Shown in pieces: positions 6,538 to 28,700 of a stretch of DNA of 29,066 nucleotides. Made by a program: the position numbers and the translations under genes. The notes under the pieces are model-generated. The model was not told the DNA's origin. It saw only the letters and a program-made list of their open reading frames with translations, and ran no database searches. Within the stretch, counting starts at the first letter, position 1; every line of letters starts with the position of its first letter. Location of the stretch: positions 1-29,066 of IMG/VR virus record IMGVR_UViG_3300038336_000027. One strand, written 5' to 3'. This DNA comes from a virus. Taxonomy: Duplodnaviria > Caudoviricetes.

Positions 6538-7515
6538 ATGACCCAGAACGCACAGATTGTCCAGATCGCTGAGGATACGGACGAGGATTACGTCGCCCAC
6601 CGCCTGCCGTTGCGCGACCGCATGCGCAGCCAGATGACCCGTGACGGGCTGTCGCAGGCCGCCACCGCCCGTGAGATCGGCATATCGGCCTCGGCGCTGA
6701 ACCAGTGGCTGCAGGGAAAGTATGCAGGCAGCAATGACGAGGTCGAGGCGCGAATCGATACCTGGCTGGCTGCGCGCGAGCGCCGTGATGCGGCATCAAG
6801 CGCCATGCCGACCCAGCCCGAGTTCTTCCGCTCGCCCTCAACCGAGAAGGTGATCAACGCGCTGAGCTATGCGCAGACGGCGGGTGACATCGTCTGCATC
6901 TATGGCAACCCCGGTGTCGGCAAGACCAAGTCGTTCCGGCATTACCGCGATACCAACCCTTCGGTCTGGATCGCCACCATGTCGCCTGACAGTGCGGGCC
7001 TTGTGCCCTGCCTTGAAGAGGTGGCCGAGGCGGTCGGGCTGCGCGATGCCGGGGGTGGGGCGCGCCGTATCGCCCGCGCCATCCGCCGCAAGGTCGAGGG
7101 CACGCGGGGCCTTTTGATCATCGACGAGGCGCAGCATCTGTCCACCGCCGCGCTGGAGGAGCTGCGCATCGCCATTCATGACGCGACCGGCATTGGCCTG
7201 GTGTTCGCGGGTAACCCGGAGGTCTATTCGCGGCTGACCGGCGGCAACCGCTCGATGCGCTTTGCCCAGATCTTCAGCCGGATCGGTATGCGCCTGTTCA
7301 TCCCTCGCCCGACCGTGGGTGATGTGCGTGCGCTGGCCGCCGCCTGGGGCGTAAAGGGCGCACCCGAGGTCGAGCTCTTGAAAGAGGTCGCGGCCGAGCC
7401 GGGTGCGCTGCGCGGAGCCAGCAAGGTGCTGGCACTCGCCGCGATGGCCAGTGACAGCCAGATCACGCTGGCAGCCCTGCGCCAGGCGCGCATCAACCTT
7501 GGCGGGCAGGAGTGA
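6538..7515 (+). CDS. MuB-like transposition AAA ATPase
   Basis: N-terminal HTH, Walker A GNPGVGKT, Walker B LLIIDEAQ, SRIG arginine finger; AGGAG RBS. Confidence 0.96.
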   Translation: MTQNAQIVQIAEDTDEDYVAHRLPLRDRMRSQMTRDGLSQAATAREIGISASALNQWLQGKYAGSNDEVEARIDTWLAARERRDAASSAMPTQPEFFRSPSTEKVINALSYAQTAGDIVCIYGNPGVGKTKSFRHYRDTNPSVWIATMSPDSAGLVPCLEEVAEAVGLRDAGGGARRIARAIRRKVEGTRGLLIIDEAQHLSTAALEELRIAIHDATGIGLVFAGNPEVYSRLTGGNRSMRFAQIFSRIGMRLFIPRPTVGDVRALAAAWGVKGAPEVELLKEVAAEPGALRGASKVLALAAMASDSQITLAALRQARINLGGQE

Positions 7516-7793
7516 TGGCGATGCTGTCTGAAGAAATCCGCAGTGTCGTGGCCAGCCTTGCCGGACAGATCGACAAGGGCGCGGTCAGCGCCGAGACCGC
7601 CGCCCGCGCCCGCGACATCCTGCGCGATGTGGCCGACCGCGTGGAGCTGATCGAGGGGCTGATCGTCCCCGACCACATGACCCTGCCCGATGACTGCCCG
7701 CCTGCGCGCAACGTGGTTCGGCTGGACCCGTGGCGCAAGCGGCTGGCGGCTATTGCCCGCCCGTCATCCCAATCCCCCTCAACCCCCGCGTAA
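7515..7793 (+). CDS. Hypothetical protein
   Basis: TGATG coupling, AGGAG RBS, high GC3. Confidence 0.7.
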   Translation: MAMLSEEIRSVVASLAGQIDKGAVSAETAARARDILRDVADRVELIEGLIVPDHMTLPDDCPPARNVVRLDPWRKRLAAIARPSSQSPSTPA

Positions 7794-7826
7794 CCGGCCT
7801 TTGAGCCGCATTTCAAGGAGAGACCC

Positions 7827-8492
7827 GTGAACCAGCAACAGGATATCACCCCCGAGGCCCCCACTGACGGCGTCATCGAGCTGCAGGGCGAGAAGTACAT
7901 GCGCGACACCGGCGGCCGTCTGGTGCCGATCGACGCGATCAAGCCCGAAGATCTGCTGATGGACGAGACCACGCGCAAGATCTGCGCCTTTGCCGAGGAC
8001 CTGTCGGCGCGCATCAGCCGCTTCCGGGGTCACACCTTCGACGACATCGCCACCACGGTGGACCTGATGACCGAGAAGTATGGCCGCCGTCTGGGCGGCG
8101 CGAAGGGCAATGTCACGCTCACCAGCTTTGACGGCACCCTGCAGGTCAAGGTGCAGGTGCAGGACCAGATCACCTTCGGCCCCGAGCTGCAGGCTGCCAA
8201 GGAGCTGGTCGATATCTGCATCTCGCGCTGGTCGGAAGGGTCCAACGCGCAGGTCCGTACCCTGATCCAGCACGCCTTCCAGGTGGACAAGGAGGGGCGG
8301 ATCAACCGCTCGGCCCTGTTCCAGCTGCGCCGCATGCGGGTCGAGGATGGCGACCCGGAGTGGCGCGCCGCGATGGATGCCCTGTCGGATGCGATCCGCG
8401 TGATCGGGTCCAAGGAATACGTCCGCTTCTACCGCCGCGACAATCCCCGCGCCCGCTGGGAGCCGATCACCATCGATCTGGCAAGCGCCTGA
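7827..8492 (+). CDS. DUF3164-family protein
   Basis: YMRDTGGRLVP, GGAKGNVTLTSFDG, FGPELQAAKELVD, AFQVDKEG, SKEYVRFY; AAGGAG RBS. Confidence 0.9.
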   Translation: MNQQQDITPEAPTDGVIELQGEKYMRDTGGRLVPIDAIKPEDLLMDETTRKICAFAEDLSARISRFRGHTFDDIATTVDLMTEKYGRRLGGAKGNVTLTSFDGTLQVKVQVQDQITFGPELQAAKELVDICISRWSEGSNAQVRTLIQHAFQVDKEGRINRSALFQLRRMRVEDGDPEWRAAMDALSDAIRVIGSKEYVRFYRRDNPRARWEPITIDLASA

Positions 8493-8518
8493 TCACCCCA
8501 CCAAGCAGGAGAGACACG

Positions 8519-9706
8519 ATGACCATCAGTGAGATTGAACTGCGCCGCGAGCTTCTGGACAAGGCGCTGGCAAGCGCGAAGCTGCCCGAGGCGATCGAGT
8601 ATGCGCATGACATGTGGCGCTTTGTCAGCGGGCAGGATGCCGCGCTGGTCTACGGGCCGACCGGCCTGCCCGCGAACTGGATGGACGGGGCCACCCCGGT
8701 CCCGGAGGCCGAGGTTGCCCGGCTGTTTCGCGATGCCAGCATCGTGGGCATTGCCCTGGACGAGAGCGGCAACTGGCGGCGGGTTGATGCGGCGGGCCGC
8801 ACGCTGGATGCGTTCGACTTTGACACCCACCCGATCTGGGGTGGCCTGCGCGACATCATCACCGATGAGGGTCTGCACCTGGTGGAGATCCCGAAGTTCT
8901 GGGTTCGCTTCGAGGCGCGCGGTGACGAGCGCCTGTGGTGGGTCAGCCCGCGCGCCCGCGAGGGGTTCGACCTGCACCCGGCCTTCCTTGCCGCCGATGG
9001 ACGCGCCGTGGCGGTGCTGCGGGTGGCCAAGTATCTCGCGACCGACAAGGAGGGCAAGATCGGTGTGGCCGCAGGGCAGACGCCCTGGACCTCGATCACG
9101 ATCGACGAGGCGCGGCGCAAATGCGAGGCGCTCGGCCAGGGCTGGCGCATGTGGTCGGTCTATGACCAGGCGGCGATCCAGTTGCTGGCGCTGATCGAGA
9201 TGGGCACCCCGGACATGCAGGACGCCATTGCGCGCGGCAATGTCGATGGCGCTGGCGCGAAGCCCACCGGCAGCACCGGGGCCGCCTGGCGGGGCATCCA
9301 TGATCTGTGGGGAAACGTCTGGCAGTTCGTCGACGGGTTGCGGATCAGCGCAGGCGGGGTGATCGAGGTCTGGCATGACCTGCTGCCCGGCCCGGACGCC
9401 TGGGTAAACACCGGCGTGGCCTATGGGCCGGGCAAGGATGACGGCTTTCCAACCGATCTGCACATGGAGCGCGACCGGGGCTTCAACCTGTCGCTTCTGT
9501 TCCTGCCCTCCGAGGTGTCTGACGATCGCGAGGATGCGATCATCCCGGACTATGTCTGGGGGCGCTGGCAGGACCGCGAGACGATCGCCATCCGTGGGGG
9601 CAGCTGGAACAGCGGCGCGAACGCCGGGGGCTTCGCCCTCGACCTGGGCCACGCGCGTTCGAGCGCGAACACGAGCCTCGGCTTCCGGCCCGCTTTCGGG
9701 TTCTGA
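8519..9706 (+). CDS. C-type-lectin/FGE-sulfatase-fold protein, DGR target-like (Mtd-like C-terminus), 395 aa
   Basis: VEIPKFW...GFDLHPAF, RGIHDLWGNVWQFVDG, C-terminal RGGSWNSGANAGGFALDLGHARSSANTSLGFRPAF; AGGAG RBS before ATG 8519. Confidence 0.85.
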   Translation: MTISEIELRRELLDKALASAKLPEAIEYAHDMWRFVSGQDAALVYGPTGLPANWMDGATPVPEAEVARLFRDASIVGIALDESGNWRRVDAAGRTLDAFDFDTHPIWGGLRDIITDEGLHLVEIPKFWVRFEARGDERLWWVSPRAREGFDLHPAFLAADGRAVAVLRVAKYLATDKEGKIGVAAGQTPWTSITIDEARRKCEALGQGWRMWSVYDQAAIQLLALIEMGTPDMQDAIARGNVDGAGAKPTGSTGAAWRGIHDLWGNVWQFVDGLRISAGGVIEVWHDLLPGPDAWVNTGVAYGPGKDDGFPTDLHMERDRGFNLSLLFLPSEVSDDREDAIIPDYVWGRWQDRETIAIRGGSWNSGANAGGFALDLGHARSSANTSLGFRPAFGF

Positions 9707-9751
9707 CATCTGACCCCCTGCACTCTGGCGGCCTGCCGAAAGGCGGGCCGC
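9584..9751 (+). other. Putative DGR variable repeat + IMH-like segment + GAAA hairpin
   Basis: AAC or AAC-derived NNC codons at the variable positions; GC-rich GGCTTCCGGCCCGC; TCTGACATCTGACCCCCTG; hairpin GCGGCCTGCC-GAAA-GGCGGGCCGC (9728-9751). Confidence 0.7.
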
Positions 9752-9757
9752 ACCACC

Positions 9758-9815
9758 GGCGAAACCGCATCGCGGTCTGTGGGGCAAGGGCACCCCCGCA
9801 CTGATGAGCCAGCCC
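9758..9815 (+). ncRNA. Type II hammerhead ribozyme with pseudoknot
   Basis: GGC-GAAA-CCGC(ATC)GCGG-TC^-TGTGGGG(CAAGGGCAC)CCCCGCA-CTGATGA-GCC-A-GCCC. All core nucleotides and three stems are present, plus loop I GGGC : 3' GCCC pairing. Confidence 0.9.
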
Positions 9816-9834
9816 GAGACAGGAGATGGGAGAC

Positions 9835-10026
9835 ATGGACCAACTGATCCACCCGGCAGGGGCCGTCATGCTGGCCGCGTTTGCGGCGGCAGTCGTGGTG
9901 TTCGGCGCGACCATCTGGGCCGGGCGCTTTGGCCCGCCGCGCTGCTACAGCTGGATGCTGTCGGGGCTTGCCGCCGGTGTTCTGGTGTTTGCCCTGGTGA
10001 TCGTCGGCGCGCTGGTGCTGGCATGA
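9835..10026 (+). CDS. Small two-TM membrane protein
   Basis: AGGAG 9 nt upstream; two hydrophobic helices; ATGA overlap with gemA. Confidence 0.7.
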   Translation: MDQLIHPAGAVMLAAFAAAVVVFGATIWAGRFGPPRCYSWMLSGLAAGVLVFALVIVGALVLA

Positions 10027-10469
10027 GCAACGCGATCAAGGCCATTCACGCAAGCCGCCGCCAGGTGCCGGGGCTTGAGGATGACGAAACGTGGCGTGAC
10101 TTCCTGCAGCAGATCACCGGCGAGCGGTCGATCCGCGCAATGCCCGAGCCCGTCCGCGCGAAGGTGCTGGATGCGCTGCGCGATCGCGGCGCGAAGGGCG
10201 GCAATGGTGCGCGCAGTTTCAGACCCTCGGACAAGCCGCATGTGCGCAAGGTCTTTGCGATCTGGGGGGCGATGTGCCGCGCCGGGATCCCCGACAATGC
10301 CACGCGCGCCGGACTGCGCGCTTTCGTGGCCAGGATGACCGCCTCGGCCGAGCGGCCCGAGGGCGTGGGTAATCCCGAATGGCTGACCCCCGAGGATGCC
10401 CGCAAGGTGACCGAGGCGCTGAAGGCATGGGAGCGCCGCGCGCTGGCCAAGCGGGGGGCTTCCAGATGA
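10023..10469 (+). CDS. gemA: GemA (Mu gp16, DUF1018) family protein
   Basis: IKAIHASRRQVPGLEDDETWRDFLQQITGERS...KVFAIW...LRAFVARMT...WLTPEDARKVTEALKAW. Confidence 0.9.
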   Translation: MSNAIKAIHASRRQVPGLEDDETWRDFLQQITGERSIRAMPEPVRAKVLDALRDRGAKGGNGARSFRPSDKPHVRKVFAIWGAMCRAGIPDNATRAGLRAFVARMTASAERPEGVGNPEWLTPEDARKVTEALKAWERRALAKRGASR

Positions 10470-10714
10470 CCCGCCGCAAGAGCCGGTCCTATCGGATCAG
10501 GATCGAGGCCGATGCCTTTGAGCGCCTCGCCGCCACCCTGATCGAGGATCACAGCACCCGGCTGGCGGAGGGCTGGACGATCTGTCCGACCTCCGGGCTG
10601 TGGCGCACCAACAGCGGAACGCTGACGGCGCGCATCGCCTATCGGCTGCGCGCACGCGGCGCGACCGTGGTGCACACCATCCGGGGGATCAATCCGGGTG
10701 TGCGCAATGGGTGA
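10466..10714 (+). CDS. Hypothetical protein
   Basis: ATGA-coupled to gemA; overlaps the next start. Confidence 0.65.
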   Translation: MTRRKSRSYRIRIEADAFERLAATLIEDHSTRLAEGWTICPTSGLWRTNSGTLTARIAYRLRARGATVVHTIRGINPGVRNG

Positions 10715-11150
10715 GCTGCGCCCCGATCCCTTCGACGGCCTGCCCCCGACCCTGCGTCAGGTGGCGGAGGTTGCCGGGGTCGAGGCGGCTGCGCGGCTGG
10801 CGCGCGATCATGGGGGCACCGAGATCTACATCCGGCGCACCCTCGACATGGAGCATGTCCTGGTCAAGTCGGTCGGCATGGAGGCGGCAGCCTCGATCCT
10901 TGAGCGCTTTGGCCCCGGCGCGCTGGAGGTGCCGCTCTGGCTGAGCGGGCGCGGCCAGCAGCTGGCCCGGCGCATCATGGAGATGCTGGACGAGGGGCGC
11001 TCGGAGGCGAAGATCGCGCGCGCCCTGCACTGCCATATCAGGACCGTGCGGCGCTACCGCGCGCGCAGCCCTTCGGCGCAGATGGACCTGTTCGAGCACT
11101 TCGATCTTGAAGAGAAGTCTTGCGCTGACGACGATTTTGACGAAAGCTGA
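10707..11150 (+). CDS. Mor/C-family late transcription activator
   Basis: LPPTLRQVAEVAGVEAAARLARDHGGTEIYI plus C-terminal HTH; last gene before the lysis cassette. Confidence 0.82.
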   Translation: MGELRPDPFDGLPPTLRQVAEVAGVEAAARLARDHGGTEIYIRRTLDMEHVLVKSVGMEAAASILERFGPGALEVPLWLSGRGQQLARRIMEMLDEGRSEAKIARALHCHIRTVRRYRARSPSAQMDLFEHFDLEEKSCADDDFDES

Positions 11151-11169
11151 ACCAAGGCGGGGCATGGCA

Positions 11170-11185
11170 GGACATCTGTCCGGGT
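11170..11185 (+). promoter_or_regulatory. Late-promoter activator site 1
   Basis: GGACA-TC-TGTCC-GGGT palindrome, 15/16 identical to 18367-18382. Confidence 0.72.
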
Positions 11186-11248
11186 CGGAACCGACCGCCG
11201 CGCGATGACAAGGTGACCGGGTGCGCAACAGCAGCGGTTGACCCTGTC

Positions 11249-12022
11249 ATGAATATCTTCGACATCCAGAAGCACCTGAAGGCACTCGGCCATGATCCGG
11301 GGCCGATCGATGGCGTCTGGGGGTCACGCACCCGCGCCGCCCTCTTCTCTCTGCTCTATGTGCTGCGCGCCGTGGCAGTGCAGGGCGCTGCCAGCTGGAA
11401 CGTGGTGCGGCTGCGCCTTGCGGCCGAGCAGGCGATCCTTGCCGCCAACGGCTTTGACCCCGGCCCGATCGACGGGCTGGACGGGCCGCGCACACAGGCC
11501 GCCCGCCAGCAGTTCACCGCCCGCCCCGATGCCCGGCTTGCCGAGGCGGTGGCGTCAACGTCGAGCGTGATCCGCCAGGGCAAGGCCGGGCACCCCGTCA
11601 ACGAGATCATCATCCATTGCGCCGCAACCCGCCCGAACTGGATGGACCGCCAGCCTCTGCGCGAGCAGATTGCAGAGATCCGCACCTGGCACCGTGAGCG
11701 CGGCTGGCGCGACATTGGCTATCACTGGATCATCGGGCGCGACGGATCGATGCTGCCGGGCCGTCCCGAGACCGAGATCGGCGCGCATGTCGCGGGGCAC
11801 AACAGCGGCACGATCGGCATCTGCCTGATCGGCGGCTTCGGCAGCGCCACCACGGATCGCTTCTCGGATCACTTCACCGCGCAGCAGGGCATCACGCTGG
11901 AGCAACAGATCCAGGCGATCTCGATGCGCACGCCGATCACCCGGATCAGCGGGCACAACGAGTATGCCGCCAAGGCCTGCCCCGGCTTCAATGTCGCCCG
12001 CTGGCTTGAGGGGTATCAGTGA
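11249..12022 (+). CDS. Endolysin: two PG-binding domains + Amidase_2 (T7-lysozyme-like)
   Basis: GHDPGPIDGVWGSRT, GFDPGPIDGLDGPRT; IIIHCAAT, DIGYHW, GAHVAGHN, GHNEYAAKACP. Confidence 0.95.
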   Translation: MNIFDIQKHLKALGHDPGPIDGVWGSRTRAALFSLLYVLRAVAVQGAASWNVVRLRLAAEQAILAANGFDPGPIDGLDGPRTQAARQQFTARPDARLAEAVASTSSVIRQGKAGHPVNEIIIHCAATRPNWMDRQPLREQIAEIRTWHRERGWRDIGYHWIIGRDGSMLPGRPETEIGAHVAGHNSGTIGICLIGGFGSATTDRFSDHFTAQQGITLEQQIQAISMRTPITRISGHNEYAAKACPGFNVARWLEGYQ

Positions 12023-25759: not shown

Positions 25760-28700
25760 CCTTTCGGTGATCATCGCCGCCGTTGACAATCTGACCGGCC
25801 CGGTTCGGAACATGGCACGATCGATGGAGGGGCTGGACCGGATGGCCGATCGCGGCCGTCAAATGCAGGACTGGGGCACCCGCATGTCGATCGCGGGGGC
25901 GATGACAGACGCGGCTGCAAGCCGGATCATGTCGGCCATCAACGGGCCGATCGATGCGGCGGCGGATTTCGAGCAGTCCATGGCGCTGGTGCGCGCCGTC
26001 ACCGCCAACATCACCGGCGACGAGTTCGCGGCGCTGTCGGCGCAGGCGCGCGATCTGGGCGCCACCACCGCCTTTTCTGCCAGCCAGGCCGCCGAGGGCA
26101 TGGGGTTTCTGGCGCGGGCGGGCTTTGATGCGCAGGAACAGATGGCGGCAATGCCGTCGATGCTGTCGCTGGCGCGCGCGGGCGCGGTCGATCTGGCCAC
26201 CACCGCCGATATCGCCTCGAACATCCTGTCGGGTTTTGGCCTCGATGCCGCCGAGATGACCCGCGTGGCCGATGTGATGGTGGCCACCTTCACCACCGCC
26301 AATACCGACATCCCGATGCTGGGCGACACGATGAAGTATATCGCGCCGGTCGCGCGCGCCGCCGGTATGAGCCTGGAAGAGGCCGCCGCGATGGCGGGCC
26401 TTCTGGGTAATGCTGGTATCCAGTCAAGCCAGGCGGGCACCACGCTGCGCTCGATGCTGCAGCGCCTGGCTGCGCCGTCGCGCGAGGCGGCTGCCGCACT
26501 GGATGCGATGGGCGTGTCGGTCGCGGACGAGAACGGCAACATGCGTTCGATGGTCACCATCCTGGGCGAGGTAGGCGATGCGATCGGCGGGCTTGGCAGC
26601 CAGCAGCAGCTTGAGATCATCGGCACGATCTTCGGGCGCGAGGCGGCGGCGGGTGCGGCCGAGATGCTGGCGCAGGGCGTGGCGATCGGGGATTACGTCG
26701 ACCAGCTGATGAATGCACAGGGTCGCGCGGCGCAAGTGGCAGCCGAGATGGGCGACAACTTCCGGGGCCTGCAGACCGAGTTCAGCTCGGCGCTGGAGGG
26801 GCTGAACATCTCGCTGGGCACGCTGCTGCTGCCGATCCTGAGTGATGTGGTGCGCATCGCGACCTCGGTGGTGCAGGCACTGATGGGCTGGGCCGAGGCC
26901 AATCCAACGCTGGCGGGGCTGGCGATGCGCGCGGCCCTTCTCGGTGGGCTGGTGCTGGCAGTGGTCGCGCCGATCCTGTCGGTGGTGGGCGGGTTTGCCA
27001 TGATGGCCGGGATCGGGCTGCAGGCCCTGGCGGCGCTTGGCACGGGGTTCGTCTGGCTGCTTCCGAAGATTTGGGCTGCGACGGGCGGCATCTTCATGTT
27101 TGGCGCGCGCCTTATCACTGTTGCGGCTGCCGCCATCCCGTCCTTCATCTCCGGGCTTCTGGCGCTGGGGGCTGCGGCGGCGGGCCGGGTGGTGGCGGGG
27201 TTGCGCGCGGCGGCGGTGGCGGCGCGGGCGTTCGGTCTGGCGCTGCTGGCCAATCCGATCGGGCTGGTGGTGGCGGCGATCGCGGCGGCGGCACTGCTGG
27301 TCTGGTATTACTGGGAGCCGATCTCGGCCTTCTTCATCGACCTCTGGGCCGATGTTCAAACGGCGTTTGAAGGGTTTTCAAGCTGGGTGACAAGCTGGTG
27401 GTCGCGGGTCACCAGCTGGCTGACGCAGGGGCTGGATTGGGCGCGCATGATCCCGAGCCTGAGCTGGGCCGATTTCGTGGGGCTGCTGACCTGGTCGAAC
27501 TTCCTGACCGCGCTCGACTGGCTGAGCTGGCTGATGCCGCTGCGCTGGCTTGACTTCATTCCGGGGTTCAGCTGGGCCGGGATCATCGGCGCGGTGCTGG
27601 ACTGGGCCGACTGGATCACCTCGCTCAGCTGGTCCGAGTTCGTGGCGCTGTTCACCTGGGACAATGCACTGCAGGTGCTCGACTGGCTGTCATGGGTTTC
27701 ACCCCTGCGCTGGCTCGACCTGATCCCCGGCTTCAGCTGGTCGGCCGTCATCGGCGGGGCGCTGGACTGGGGCCAGTGGATCACCGGCCTGTCGTGGTCC
27801 GAGTTCGTCGACCTCTTCACCTGGGACAATGCGCTGCAGGTGCTGGACTGGGTGTCGTGGGTCTCGCCCCTGCGCTGGCTGGATTTCATCCCCGGCTTCA
27901 GCTGGGCCGCGATCATCGACAGCGCGCTCGACTGGGGTGCCTGGGTGGCGGCGCTGGACTGGGCGGCCTATGCGCCCGCGCTGTCGTGGTCGGGCGTGGT
28001 GAGCGTGCTCGACTGGGCGTCGTGGATCCTGCCGCCCCGCTGGCTCGACCTGATCCCCGGCTTCAGCTGGTCGGCCGTCATCGGCAGCGCCCTTGACTGG
28101 GGTCAGTGGATCACCGGCCTGTCGTGGTCCGAGTTCGTCGGCCTCTTCACCTGGGGCAATGCGCTGCAGGTTCTGGACTGGGTGTCGTGGGTCTCGCCCC
28201 TGCGCTGGCTGGATTTCATCCCCGGCTTCAGCTGGGCCGCGATCATCGACAGCGCGCTCGACTGGGGTGCGTGGGTGGTGGCGCTGGACTGGGCAGTCTA
28301 TGTCCCGAGCCTCAATCTGTCCGGGGTCATCACGGGCGCGATCGACTGGCTGGCATGGGTCTCGCCGCTCAACTGGCTGGACTACATCCCGACCTTCAGC
28401 TGGTCCGATGTCCTGCCCGACATGCCCGCGCTCGACTGGTCGGCGGTGGCGGCCGGGATGCAGGCCCCGTTCGACACCGCCTTTGCGGGCATCACTGCGA
28501 TCTGGGACGGGCTGCGCAGCCTCTTTGCCTGGTCGCCCCTTGAGACGATCCGCGAAGCCTTCGGCGGCATTGGCGAGACGGTGGTCGGCATCATCTCGGG
28601 CGCGGCCGATATGGCGGGGGCCGCATGGAACCGGCTGTCCGCGATCTTCTCCAGCGGCGATGCGGCCGAGATGGCGATCCGCGATCCGGCCTCGATCGAG

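Follow-up and report, generated by a model that had tools for sequence, protein, structure and literature searches.

A remote DGR target gene and a predicted hammerhead ribozyme share an interval in the early operon of a Mu-like phage

The window, by which we mean the whole stretch of DNA analysed (the entire 29,066-base virus record), is a truncated Mu-like phage that ends in the tail region, and its DUF3164-gemA interval is the site of a DGR target gene and, behind it, a predicted hammerhead ribozyme (Table 1). The explanation that we prefer, to which we assign a probability of roughly 0.65, is that the gene is a remote DGR target in the accessory part of the early operon and that the ribozyme is an ordinary intergenic mRNA-processing element of the same operon, probably outside mutagenesis. 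The pairing of the two likely reflects a shared address rather than a new joint machine. The combination is new, and both of its elements are known, in known settings; the label of a new DGR-ribozyme system, which a preliminary description had put forward, does not stand up. In the openly searchable literature, we found no description of a junction between a DGR target and a hammerhead (the DGR and hammerhead mentions in the available part of PMC5737381 are unrelated to such a junction).

Table 1. Positions of the target gene, its DGR elements, the predicted ribozyme and neighboring genes in the window
Feature	Position	Strand	Basis or remark
DUF3164 gene, Mu-like early region (context)	7827..8492	+	Pfam PF11363, E 1.4e-72
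Remote DGR target gene, 395 aa, predicted FGE-type C-type-lectin (CLec) fold	8519..9706	+	phmmer, AlphaFold, Foldseek
Variable repeat (VR)	9590..9699 (core 9596-9694)	+	template-like contigs match 9590-9699
IMH-like segment	9680..9727	+	GC-rich VR end plus stretch common to cassette target and absent from template; boundaries inferred
GC-rich 10-bp hairpin with GAAA (GRNA) loop, DGR target hairpin/cruciform	9728..9751	+	sequence
Predicted type II hammerhead ribozyme	9758..9815	+	Rfam RF02276, own descriptor, alignments
Hammerhead stem II	9758-9760/9808-9810	+	sequence
Hammerhead GAAA	9761-9764	+	sequence
Hammerhead stem III	9764-9768/9772-9776	+	sequence
Predicted cut site	after C9777	+	71 nt past target stop
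Hammerhead stem I	9778-9784/9794-9800	+	sequence
Possible hammerhead pseudoknot, 4 bp	9788-9791/9812-9815	+	sequence
Hammerhead CUGAUGA	9801-9807	+	sequence
Small hydrophobic ORF, 63 aa from 9835	9835..10026	+	ribosome-binding site just 3' of ribozyme
gemA	10023..10469	+	Pfam PF06252, E 5.7e-25
Mor/C-like activator (context)	10707..11150	+	weak Pfam Mor and HTH matches

The target gene, its variable repeat and its template

Pfam searches recognised genes for a repressor, Ner, HU, MuA, MuB, DUF3164, GemA and a lysin in the window, with morphogenesis-region ORFs behind them. The small ORF that follows the ribozyme has an alternative in-frame start at 9826 and matches no Pfam or PHROG family; in relatives, other genes stand in its place. 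A promoter and terminator scan of 7000-11500 returned no terminator and one promoter-like site, on the minus strand and with a score near chance. At the end of the contig, the presumed tape-measure gene contains, over 27508-28460, tryptophan-rich repeats of 165 nt (55 codons).

The target product matches TaqVP (PDB 5VF4) in a phmmer search (E 9e-7). Its AlphaFold model, with a pLDDT of 72.5 and some 70 helical, low-confidence residues at the N-terminus, returned TaqVP as the top Foldseek match (E 2.6e-15), followed by PvdO, TvpA and Mtd. The VR forms the final ~38 codons before the stop codon at 9704-9706. The C-terminus is variable among 24 homologues, and the reading frame has an intact end in 22 out of 22 close homologues. 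Judged from sequence and the predicted model, the gene product is a DGR variable protein with a CLec/FGE fold and a VR-coded C-terminus. Since the gene belongs to an early operon and its N-terminus is not recognisable as that of a tail fibre, the protein may not be part of the virion. GenBank phages contain distant homologues only (33 records, each with <60% identity).

A wide CLec family with VR-like ends and hairpins (L012, L261, L266, L267, L271, L275, L285, L286 and L331) is placed away from Avd/RT, in early or replication modules beside genes for primase, SSB, dUTPase, Erf, antirepressor and methylase. An Rfam RT-18 RNA is located 3' of one CLec homologue (L005:2153-2228), and isrK and C4 antisense RNAs are located 5' of another (L271:320-504).

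A repeat search found no template copy of the VR within the window, whose 29 kb break off short of any DGR cassette and lack RT, Avd and TR. Of the genomes of four relatives, three (G001, G002 and G003) have two VRs and a template next to RT. The distance between the remote repeat (VR2) and the template on one contig is 27.6 kb in G001 and 26.8 kb in G003; in G002, the cassette is on a different contig from VR2. When the 99-nt core of VR2 is compared with the template of the same genome, 11/22 and 14/22 adenines are changed in the two genomes with a ribozyme and 10/21 in G003, which lacks one; none of the 77-78 other bases is changed in any of the three. The cassette repeats (VR1) of the relatives are changed at 11-13 of 21-22 adenines. 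The remote target of G003 is located between the repressor and MuA genes; it has no ribozyme, yet is equally mutated.

The window VR differs from the G001 template at 9/22 adenines and at 6/77 other bases, the latter being expected because this template is not the cognate one. In the runs containing the window, three of which may be its source, the template-like contigs show nine differences over 9613-9699 and three over 9590-9639; the listed changes are mostly to A, with a single non-A difference at 9630. The same runs contain, at equal depth, contigs laid out like a cognate VR1-avd-TR cassette: a 519-nt contig leads from the end of the second VR to the start of the template, with 419 nt between them, as long as avd; another contig, of 2.2 kb, has the template at its start. 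These separate contigs probably belong to the window's phage. VR2 is a remote second target since its template lies ~27 kb off on the same contig in two relatives, and the window VR is probably the remote second target of its phage's DGR.

The RT gene of one relative's cassette (L039, G001:C14) has an in-frame stop at codon 55, and the G002 and G003 frames are open for 358 and 363 codons; the DGR of the L039 strain may be inactive. Two other loci (L049:390 and L338:268) combine a different VR/IMH type with the same target family and ribozyme, and their target gene appears to have been re-fitted to another DGR template.

The G001 template contains 0 codons convertible to a stop under A-to-N change. 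This bears on a suggestion of the preliminary description, that the ribozyme shields expression of gemA and the activator from harmful mutated alleles of the target. The ribozyme does stand between the hypervariable gene and gemA-mor. However, a template that cannot create stop codons leaves no nonsense alleles to insulate, the VR is limited to the last ~38 codons, the 22 close homologues are all in frame to the end, and the same ribozyme class also precedes gemA where there is no hypervariable gene. Such insulation is extremely unlikely.

The template match stops at 9699 and the match to the cassette target extends to 9727, a pattern repeated in G001-G003. Both the IMH and the GC-rich GRNA hairpin are present 3' of the VR and missing after the TR. 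The hairpin begins after 21 nt past the target stop and has 10 pairs including one G-T (-13.5 kcal/mol as sense-strand DNA); its pairing is kept across nine distinct relatives (97.8% of cells paired). Because the scan of 7000-11500 found no terminator, the hairpin is not a U-tailed terminator. The deviations in lineage-1 hairpins (those of the window and its orthologues) are sense-strand G-T only, with four G-T and no A-C in five distinct stems; cassette hairpins have three G-T and three A-C in 21, all small numbers.

A predicted type II hammerhead behind the hairpin

The preliminary description had the VR, IMH-like segment, hairpin and hammerhead contiguous, with 6 nt from 9751 to 9758, and it had placed the cut 71 nt past the target stop. 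The sequence confirms both, the spacer being 9752-9757. Rfam matches Hammerhead_II at 9757-9818 with 36.8 bits (E 3.5e-4), just under the gathering score of 37; the orthologous hammerheads of L001/L003 and L040 are likewise under this score, and lineage-2 copies have 52-54 bits. The catalytic core is complete, with GAAA, UH and CUGANGA, stems I and III closed and stem II open. Our descriptor, matched with 7/3/4 pairs, occurs once in the real window against once in 100 shuffles of it.

The core is invariant in 10 out of 10 aligned lineage-1 hammerheads. The four pseudoknot pairs are present and invariant in 9/9 distinct sequences, and lineage 2 has a different outer pair in the same place. Identity across the motif is 82.5%-96.5% in 8/8 relatives, compared with 51%-74% in the 60 nt 3' of the motif; coding DNA 5' of the VR, at 65%-91% in seven measurable relatives, is also below the hammerhead motif. 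By plain folding, 9700-9840 does not surpass its shuffles (z -0.93), the active fold is 0.7 kcal/mol above the minimum with the pseudoknot uncounted, and the lineage-1 ribozyme pairs hardly vary, so covariation is uninformative. Contigs of relatives span the predicted cut in three of four RNA-library runs (8400-10600), but contigs show no RNA ends and are possibly DNA-derived, and they speak neither for cleavage nor against it. We conclude that 9758-9815 is a predicted type II hammerhead and that the motif itself is real.

In L344, the second position of the CUGAUGA core in the hammerhead 3' of the target is C instead of U, possibly a natural slow or dead allele.

Recurrence of the junction, and hammerheads elsewhere

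The order VR-hairpin-hammerhead is found in 11 distinct relatives (L003, L009, L010, L047, L049, L050, L052, L054, L338, L340 and L345), of which L009 is the Pseudoruegeria aquimaris record. A hammerhead 55-56 nt past the stop is present at 13 of the 79 homologous CLec loci: five of lineage 1 and eight of a second Mu-like lineage. The stop and the predicted cut are 70-72 nt apart at 10 loci of lineage 1 and 77-78 nt apart at four junctions of lineage 2. A VR lies 5' of the hammerhead in 7/8 viral matches and in all lineage-1 metagenome matches, and no lineage-1 phage with the hammerhead but without the target was found among the viral and metagenome matches. The hammerhead is kept despite exchange of the VR/IMH type (L049 and L338) and despite exchange of the downstream gene. 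A gemA-based locus search gave two loci, both found already by other routes.

In a quick CLec tree without bootstrap, built from 80 rows after trimming of the VR-coded ends and exclusion of a few duplicates and of rows shorter than 250 aa, lineage 2 and its own cassette targets form one group (support 100). The junction label needs at least three changes on this tree, which fits two gains plus losses. As aligned, the junction is conserved, stands in two unrelated CLec clades and is no one-off.

Among 80 DUF3164 loci, the ribozyme is present in 5/5 with the CLec gene and in 0/75 without it; those five are the closest relatives of the window, so the association amounts to one event. Thirteen of the nearest DUF3164 loci without the CLec gene have no ribozyme by Rfam. 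The co-occurrence that the preliminary description proposed to survey holds among the closest kin. Elsewhere, the first of its two refuting observations, a hammerhead ahead of gemA with or without the CLec gene, was made: in four host-family genomes, type II hammerheads occupy the DUF3164-gemA interval of Mu-like prophages that have no CLec gene.

Searching for the ribozyme first, in about half of the viral collection, we obtained 122 loci with 118 distinct type II hammerheads. An ORF stop lies within 150 nt 5' of 108 of these 118 (median 4 nt), an RBS and start lie 3' of 84, and a Mu-like early gene is near 29. Just one has a CLec VR directly 5', and the other 117 have no CLec gene nearby. 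At least two hammerheads occur in 18 out of 69 loci of at least 2.5 kb; the maximum is 12, set between small genes over 3.7 kb. In the host family (401 genomes, 35 with DUF3164), five of the 30 pattern matches that were retrieved fold as hammerheads, and each of the five has DUF3164 nearby; four of the five follow the HU stop without a CLec gene, three of them with gemA in view, and about 4/34 Mu-carrying genomes have a hammerhead without the CLec gene. The other 25 fetched loose-pattern matches failed the descriptor test and are chance or coding matches; the 30 do not include five more matches for which there was no locus.

As described in the available part of PMC3088659, hammerheads flank single prophage genes and were proposed to cut long transcripts; their strongest gene links, according to the available part of PMC10085705, are to Mu-like phages. 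The survey of 118 hammerheads and the host-family hammerheads behind HU without a target indicate that the ribozyme is generic. Two observations count against this: ribozyme and target go together in the window's kin (5/5 vs. 0/75), and the junction occurs in two CLec clades that are unrelated, at a near-constant stop-to-cut distance within each.

Several of the phage loci contain arrays. In L147 (3.7 kb), 12 type II hammerheads form an integron-like array, and each of the 11 short stretches between them contains an RBS and a small ORF. Arrays of three to five hammerheads also occur in L138, L140, L177, L184, L210 and L343. In a phage (L157), two identical minus-strand hammerheads (at 54 and 949) each lie directly 3' of a tRNA-like sequence.

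No hammerhead was found at the 36 loci with an Avd or RT match (cassette targets), at the cassette targets of G001-G003, or at about 10 remote CLec homologues in replication or early modules of other phages. The opposite label, no Avd/RT hit, is a soft one since the RT query has only 54 aa, and the 30 loci so labelled include tail-region genes and cut contigs; 18 of the 30 were annotated, plus L012.

These counts bear on the possibility that the ribozyme is coupled to the DGR, the cut beside the hairpin either changing retrohoming at the remote site (for example, through RNA released from the displaced strand) or tuning its rate relative to the cassette target. The fixed spacing and the two separate origins point toward such a coupling, and the G-T-only deviations of the lineage-1 hairpins would suit an RNA or single-strand role, in cases too few to weigh. 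Against it stand the 0/36 cassette targets and BPP-1, which needs nothing past the hairpin: Homing there requires nothing past +24 of the VR (PMC3240598, in the part available). Adenine changes are also alike in VR2 with the ribozyme (11/22 and 14/22), in VR2 without it (10/21) and in the cassette VR1 (11-13 of 21-22), although endpoint divergence is not a rate and a modest effect may exist. The 36 cassette loci, the mutated VR2 of G003 and the ribozyme-less remote homologues together argue that the ribozyme is not needed for homing. We consider a coupling very unlikely, and the effect on retrohoming raised in the preliminary description becomes improbable with it; nor do 0/36 cassette loci with a hammerhead, 13/79 CLec loci with one and 117/118 hammerheads without a CLec gene fit the DGR-specific joint system proposed there.

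Near-identical hammerhead copies may instead serve as repeated module boundaries, between which homologous recombination inserts, deletes or duplicates a gene, with the gene, VR, IMH, hairpin and hammerhead traveling as one module. Lineage-2 targets have a hammerhead on either side, the two being 86%-93% alike. One locus (L323:1294-3683) has two tandem target copies and three hammerheads, the first two identical in the core; the 3' part of copy 1 is 87%-90% like cassette targets and 74% like copy 2. The tandem is therefore not a simple repeat of VR variants, and copy 1 looks recombinant with a cassette target. In another locus (L339, minus strand 2501-2947), an extra 98-aa gene (50% GC) in the HU-target interval lies between two 100% identical hammerheads. 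In the window's kin, target and ribozyme are jointly present or absent. However, the window and its lineage have a single hammerhead and none 5' of the target, no empty site was found, many neighboring hammerheads are just 55%-85% alike, and L323 and L339 are single metagenome contigs in which misassembly at repeats is possible.

The mobile cassette boundary of the preliminary description thus finds support in the hammerhead-bracketed targets, mainly of the second lineage, and not in the window's own lineage with its one hammerhead. We hold module boundaries to be unlikely but worth keeping in view, and this reading can be compatible with our preferred explanation. No description of hammerhead-bounded cassettes was found in the openly searchable literature. 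Phage hammerheads might even have two roles, the RNA cutting the early transcript into messages of gene length and the repeated DNA making each gene a swappable cassette, with remote DGR targets riding on this system; we put this view forward tentatively and regard it as doubtful. If the cassette reading is true, bacterial hammerheads gain a genome-level role; if the view of two roles is true, a phage can acquire a hypervariable binding protein in its early operon, duplicate it and fit it to another template.

Proposed mechanism and comparison with known systems

In the explanation that we prefer, a remote target followed by an operon-processing ribozyme, Avd, RT and TR would act in trans on the VR, IMH and hairpin at the DNA level, by analogy with BPP-1. 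The ribozyme would cut the transcript 71 nt past the target stop. Going by hammerhead chemistry, the target mRNA would keep two 3' hairpins and a cyclic phosphate end, and the message of the small ORF, gemA and mor would gain a 5'-OH end with a stem-loop. Cyclic-phosphate and 5'-OH ends alter mRNA decay. The stabilities of the upstream and downstream messages could thereby be set separately. The ribozyme would occupy the first free place past the IMH and hairpin: Hammerheads start a median of 4 nt past a stop, and the first ~45 nt here are taken by the IMH and hairpin, which would account for the 6-nt spacing.

PMC10085705 and PMC6765202 describe the purpose of hammerheads near Mu-like genes as unknown, and PMC10743442 says the same of the role that second DGR targets play in phages. 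The locus offers one construct for both questions; a named relative (L009) is available for it, as are natural variants that have or lack the ribozyme.

Compared with the Rfam RF02276 prophage type II hammerheads, as covered by Perreault et al. (2011; PMC3088659), the window's motif has the same permutation, full core and loop I/3'-tail pseudoknot; those hammerheads, too, are intergenic in a phage operon and flank single genes, and were proposed to cut transcripts to gene-length mRNAs. They start a few nucleotides past the stop, whereas the window copy starts ~52 nt past it, with the IMH and hairpin intervening, and its upstream gene is a DGR target, an arrangement that we did not find described.

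Prophage targets that are not adjacent to their DGR are known from Wu et al. (2018; PMC5758913, in the part available), where a second target with its own VR, IMH and hairpin lies up to 50 kb from the avd-TR-RT target. A second distal VR is also described for four gut prophage species in the available part of PMC12629997; that of PMC6199706 contains nothing on second DGR targets. The present locus differs from the non-adjacent prophage targets in its position in the DUF3164-gemA interval, in its occurrence in alphaproteobacterial Mu-like phages and in the ribozyme behind it. The BPP-1 target site (Guo et al. 2011; PMC3240598, as far as available) likewise has a GC-rich stem of 7-10 bp with a GRNA loop shortly past the VR, and the FGE-type CLec proteins TaqVP and TvpA (PDB 5VF4 and 2Y3C) likewise carry a C-terminal VR on a CLec fold. 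In contrast to these systems, the window stem includes a G-T pair, and the gene, with no recognisable tail-fibre N-terminus, is part of an early operon.
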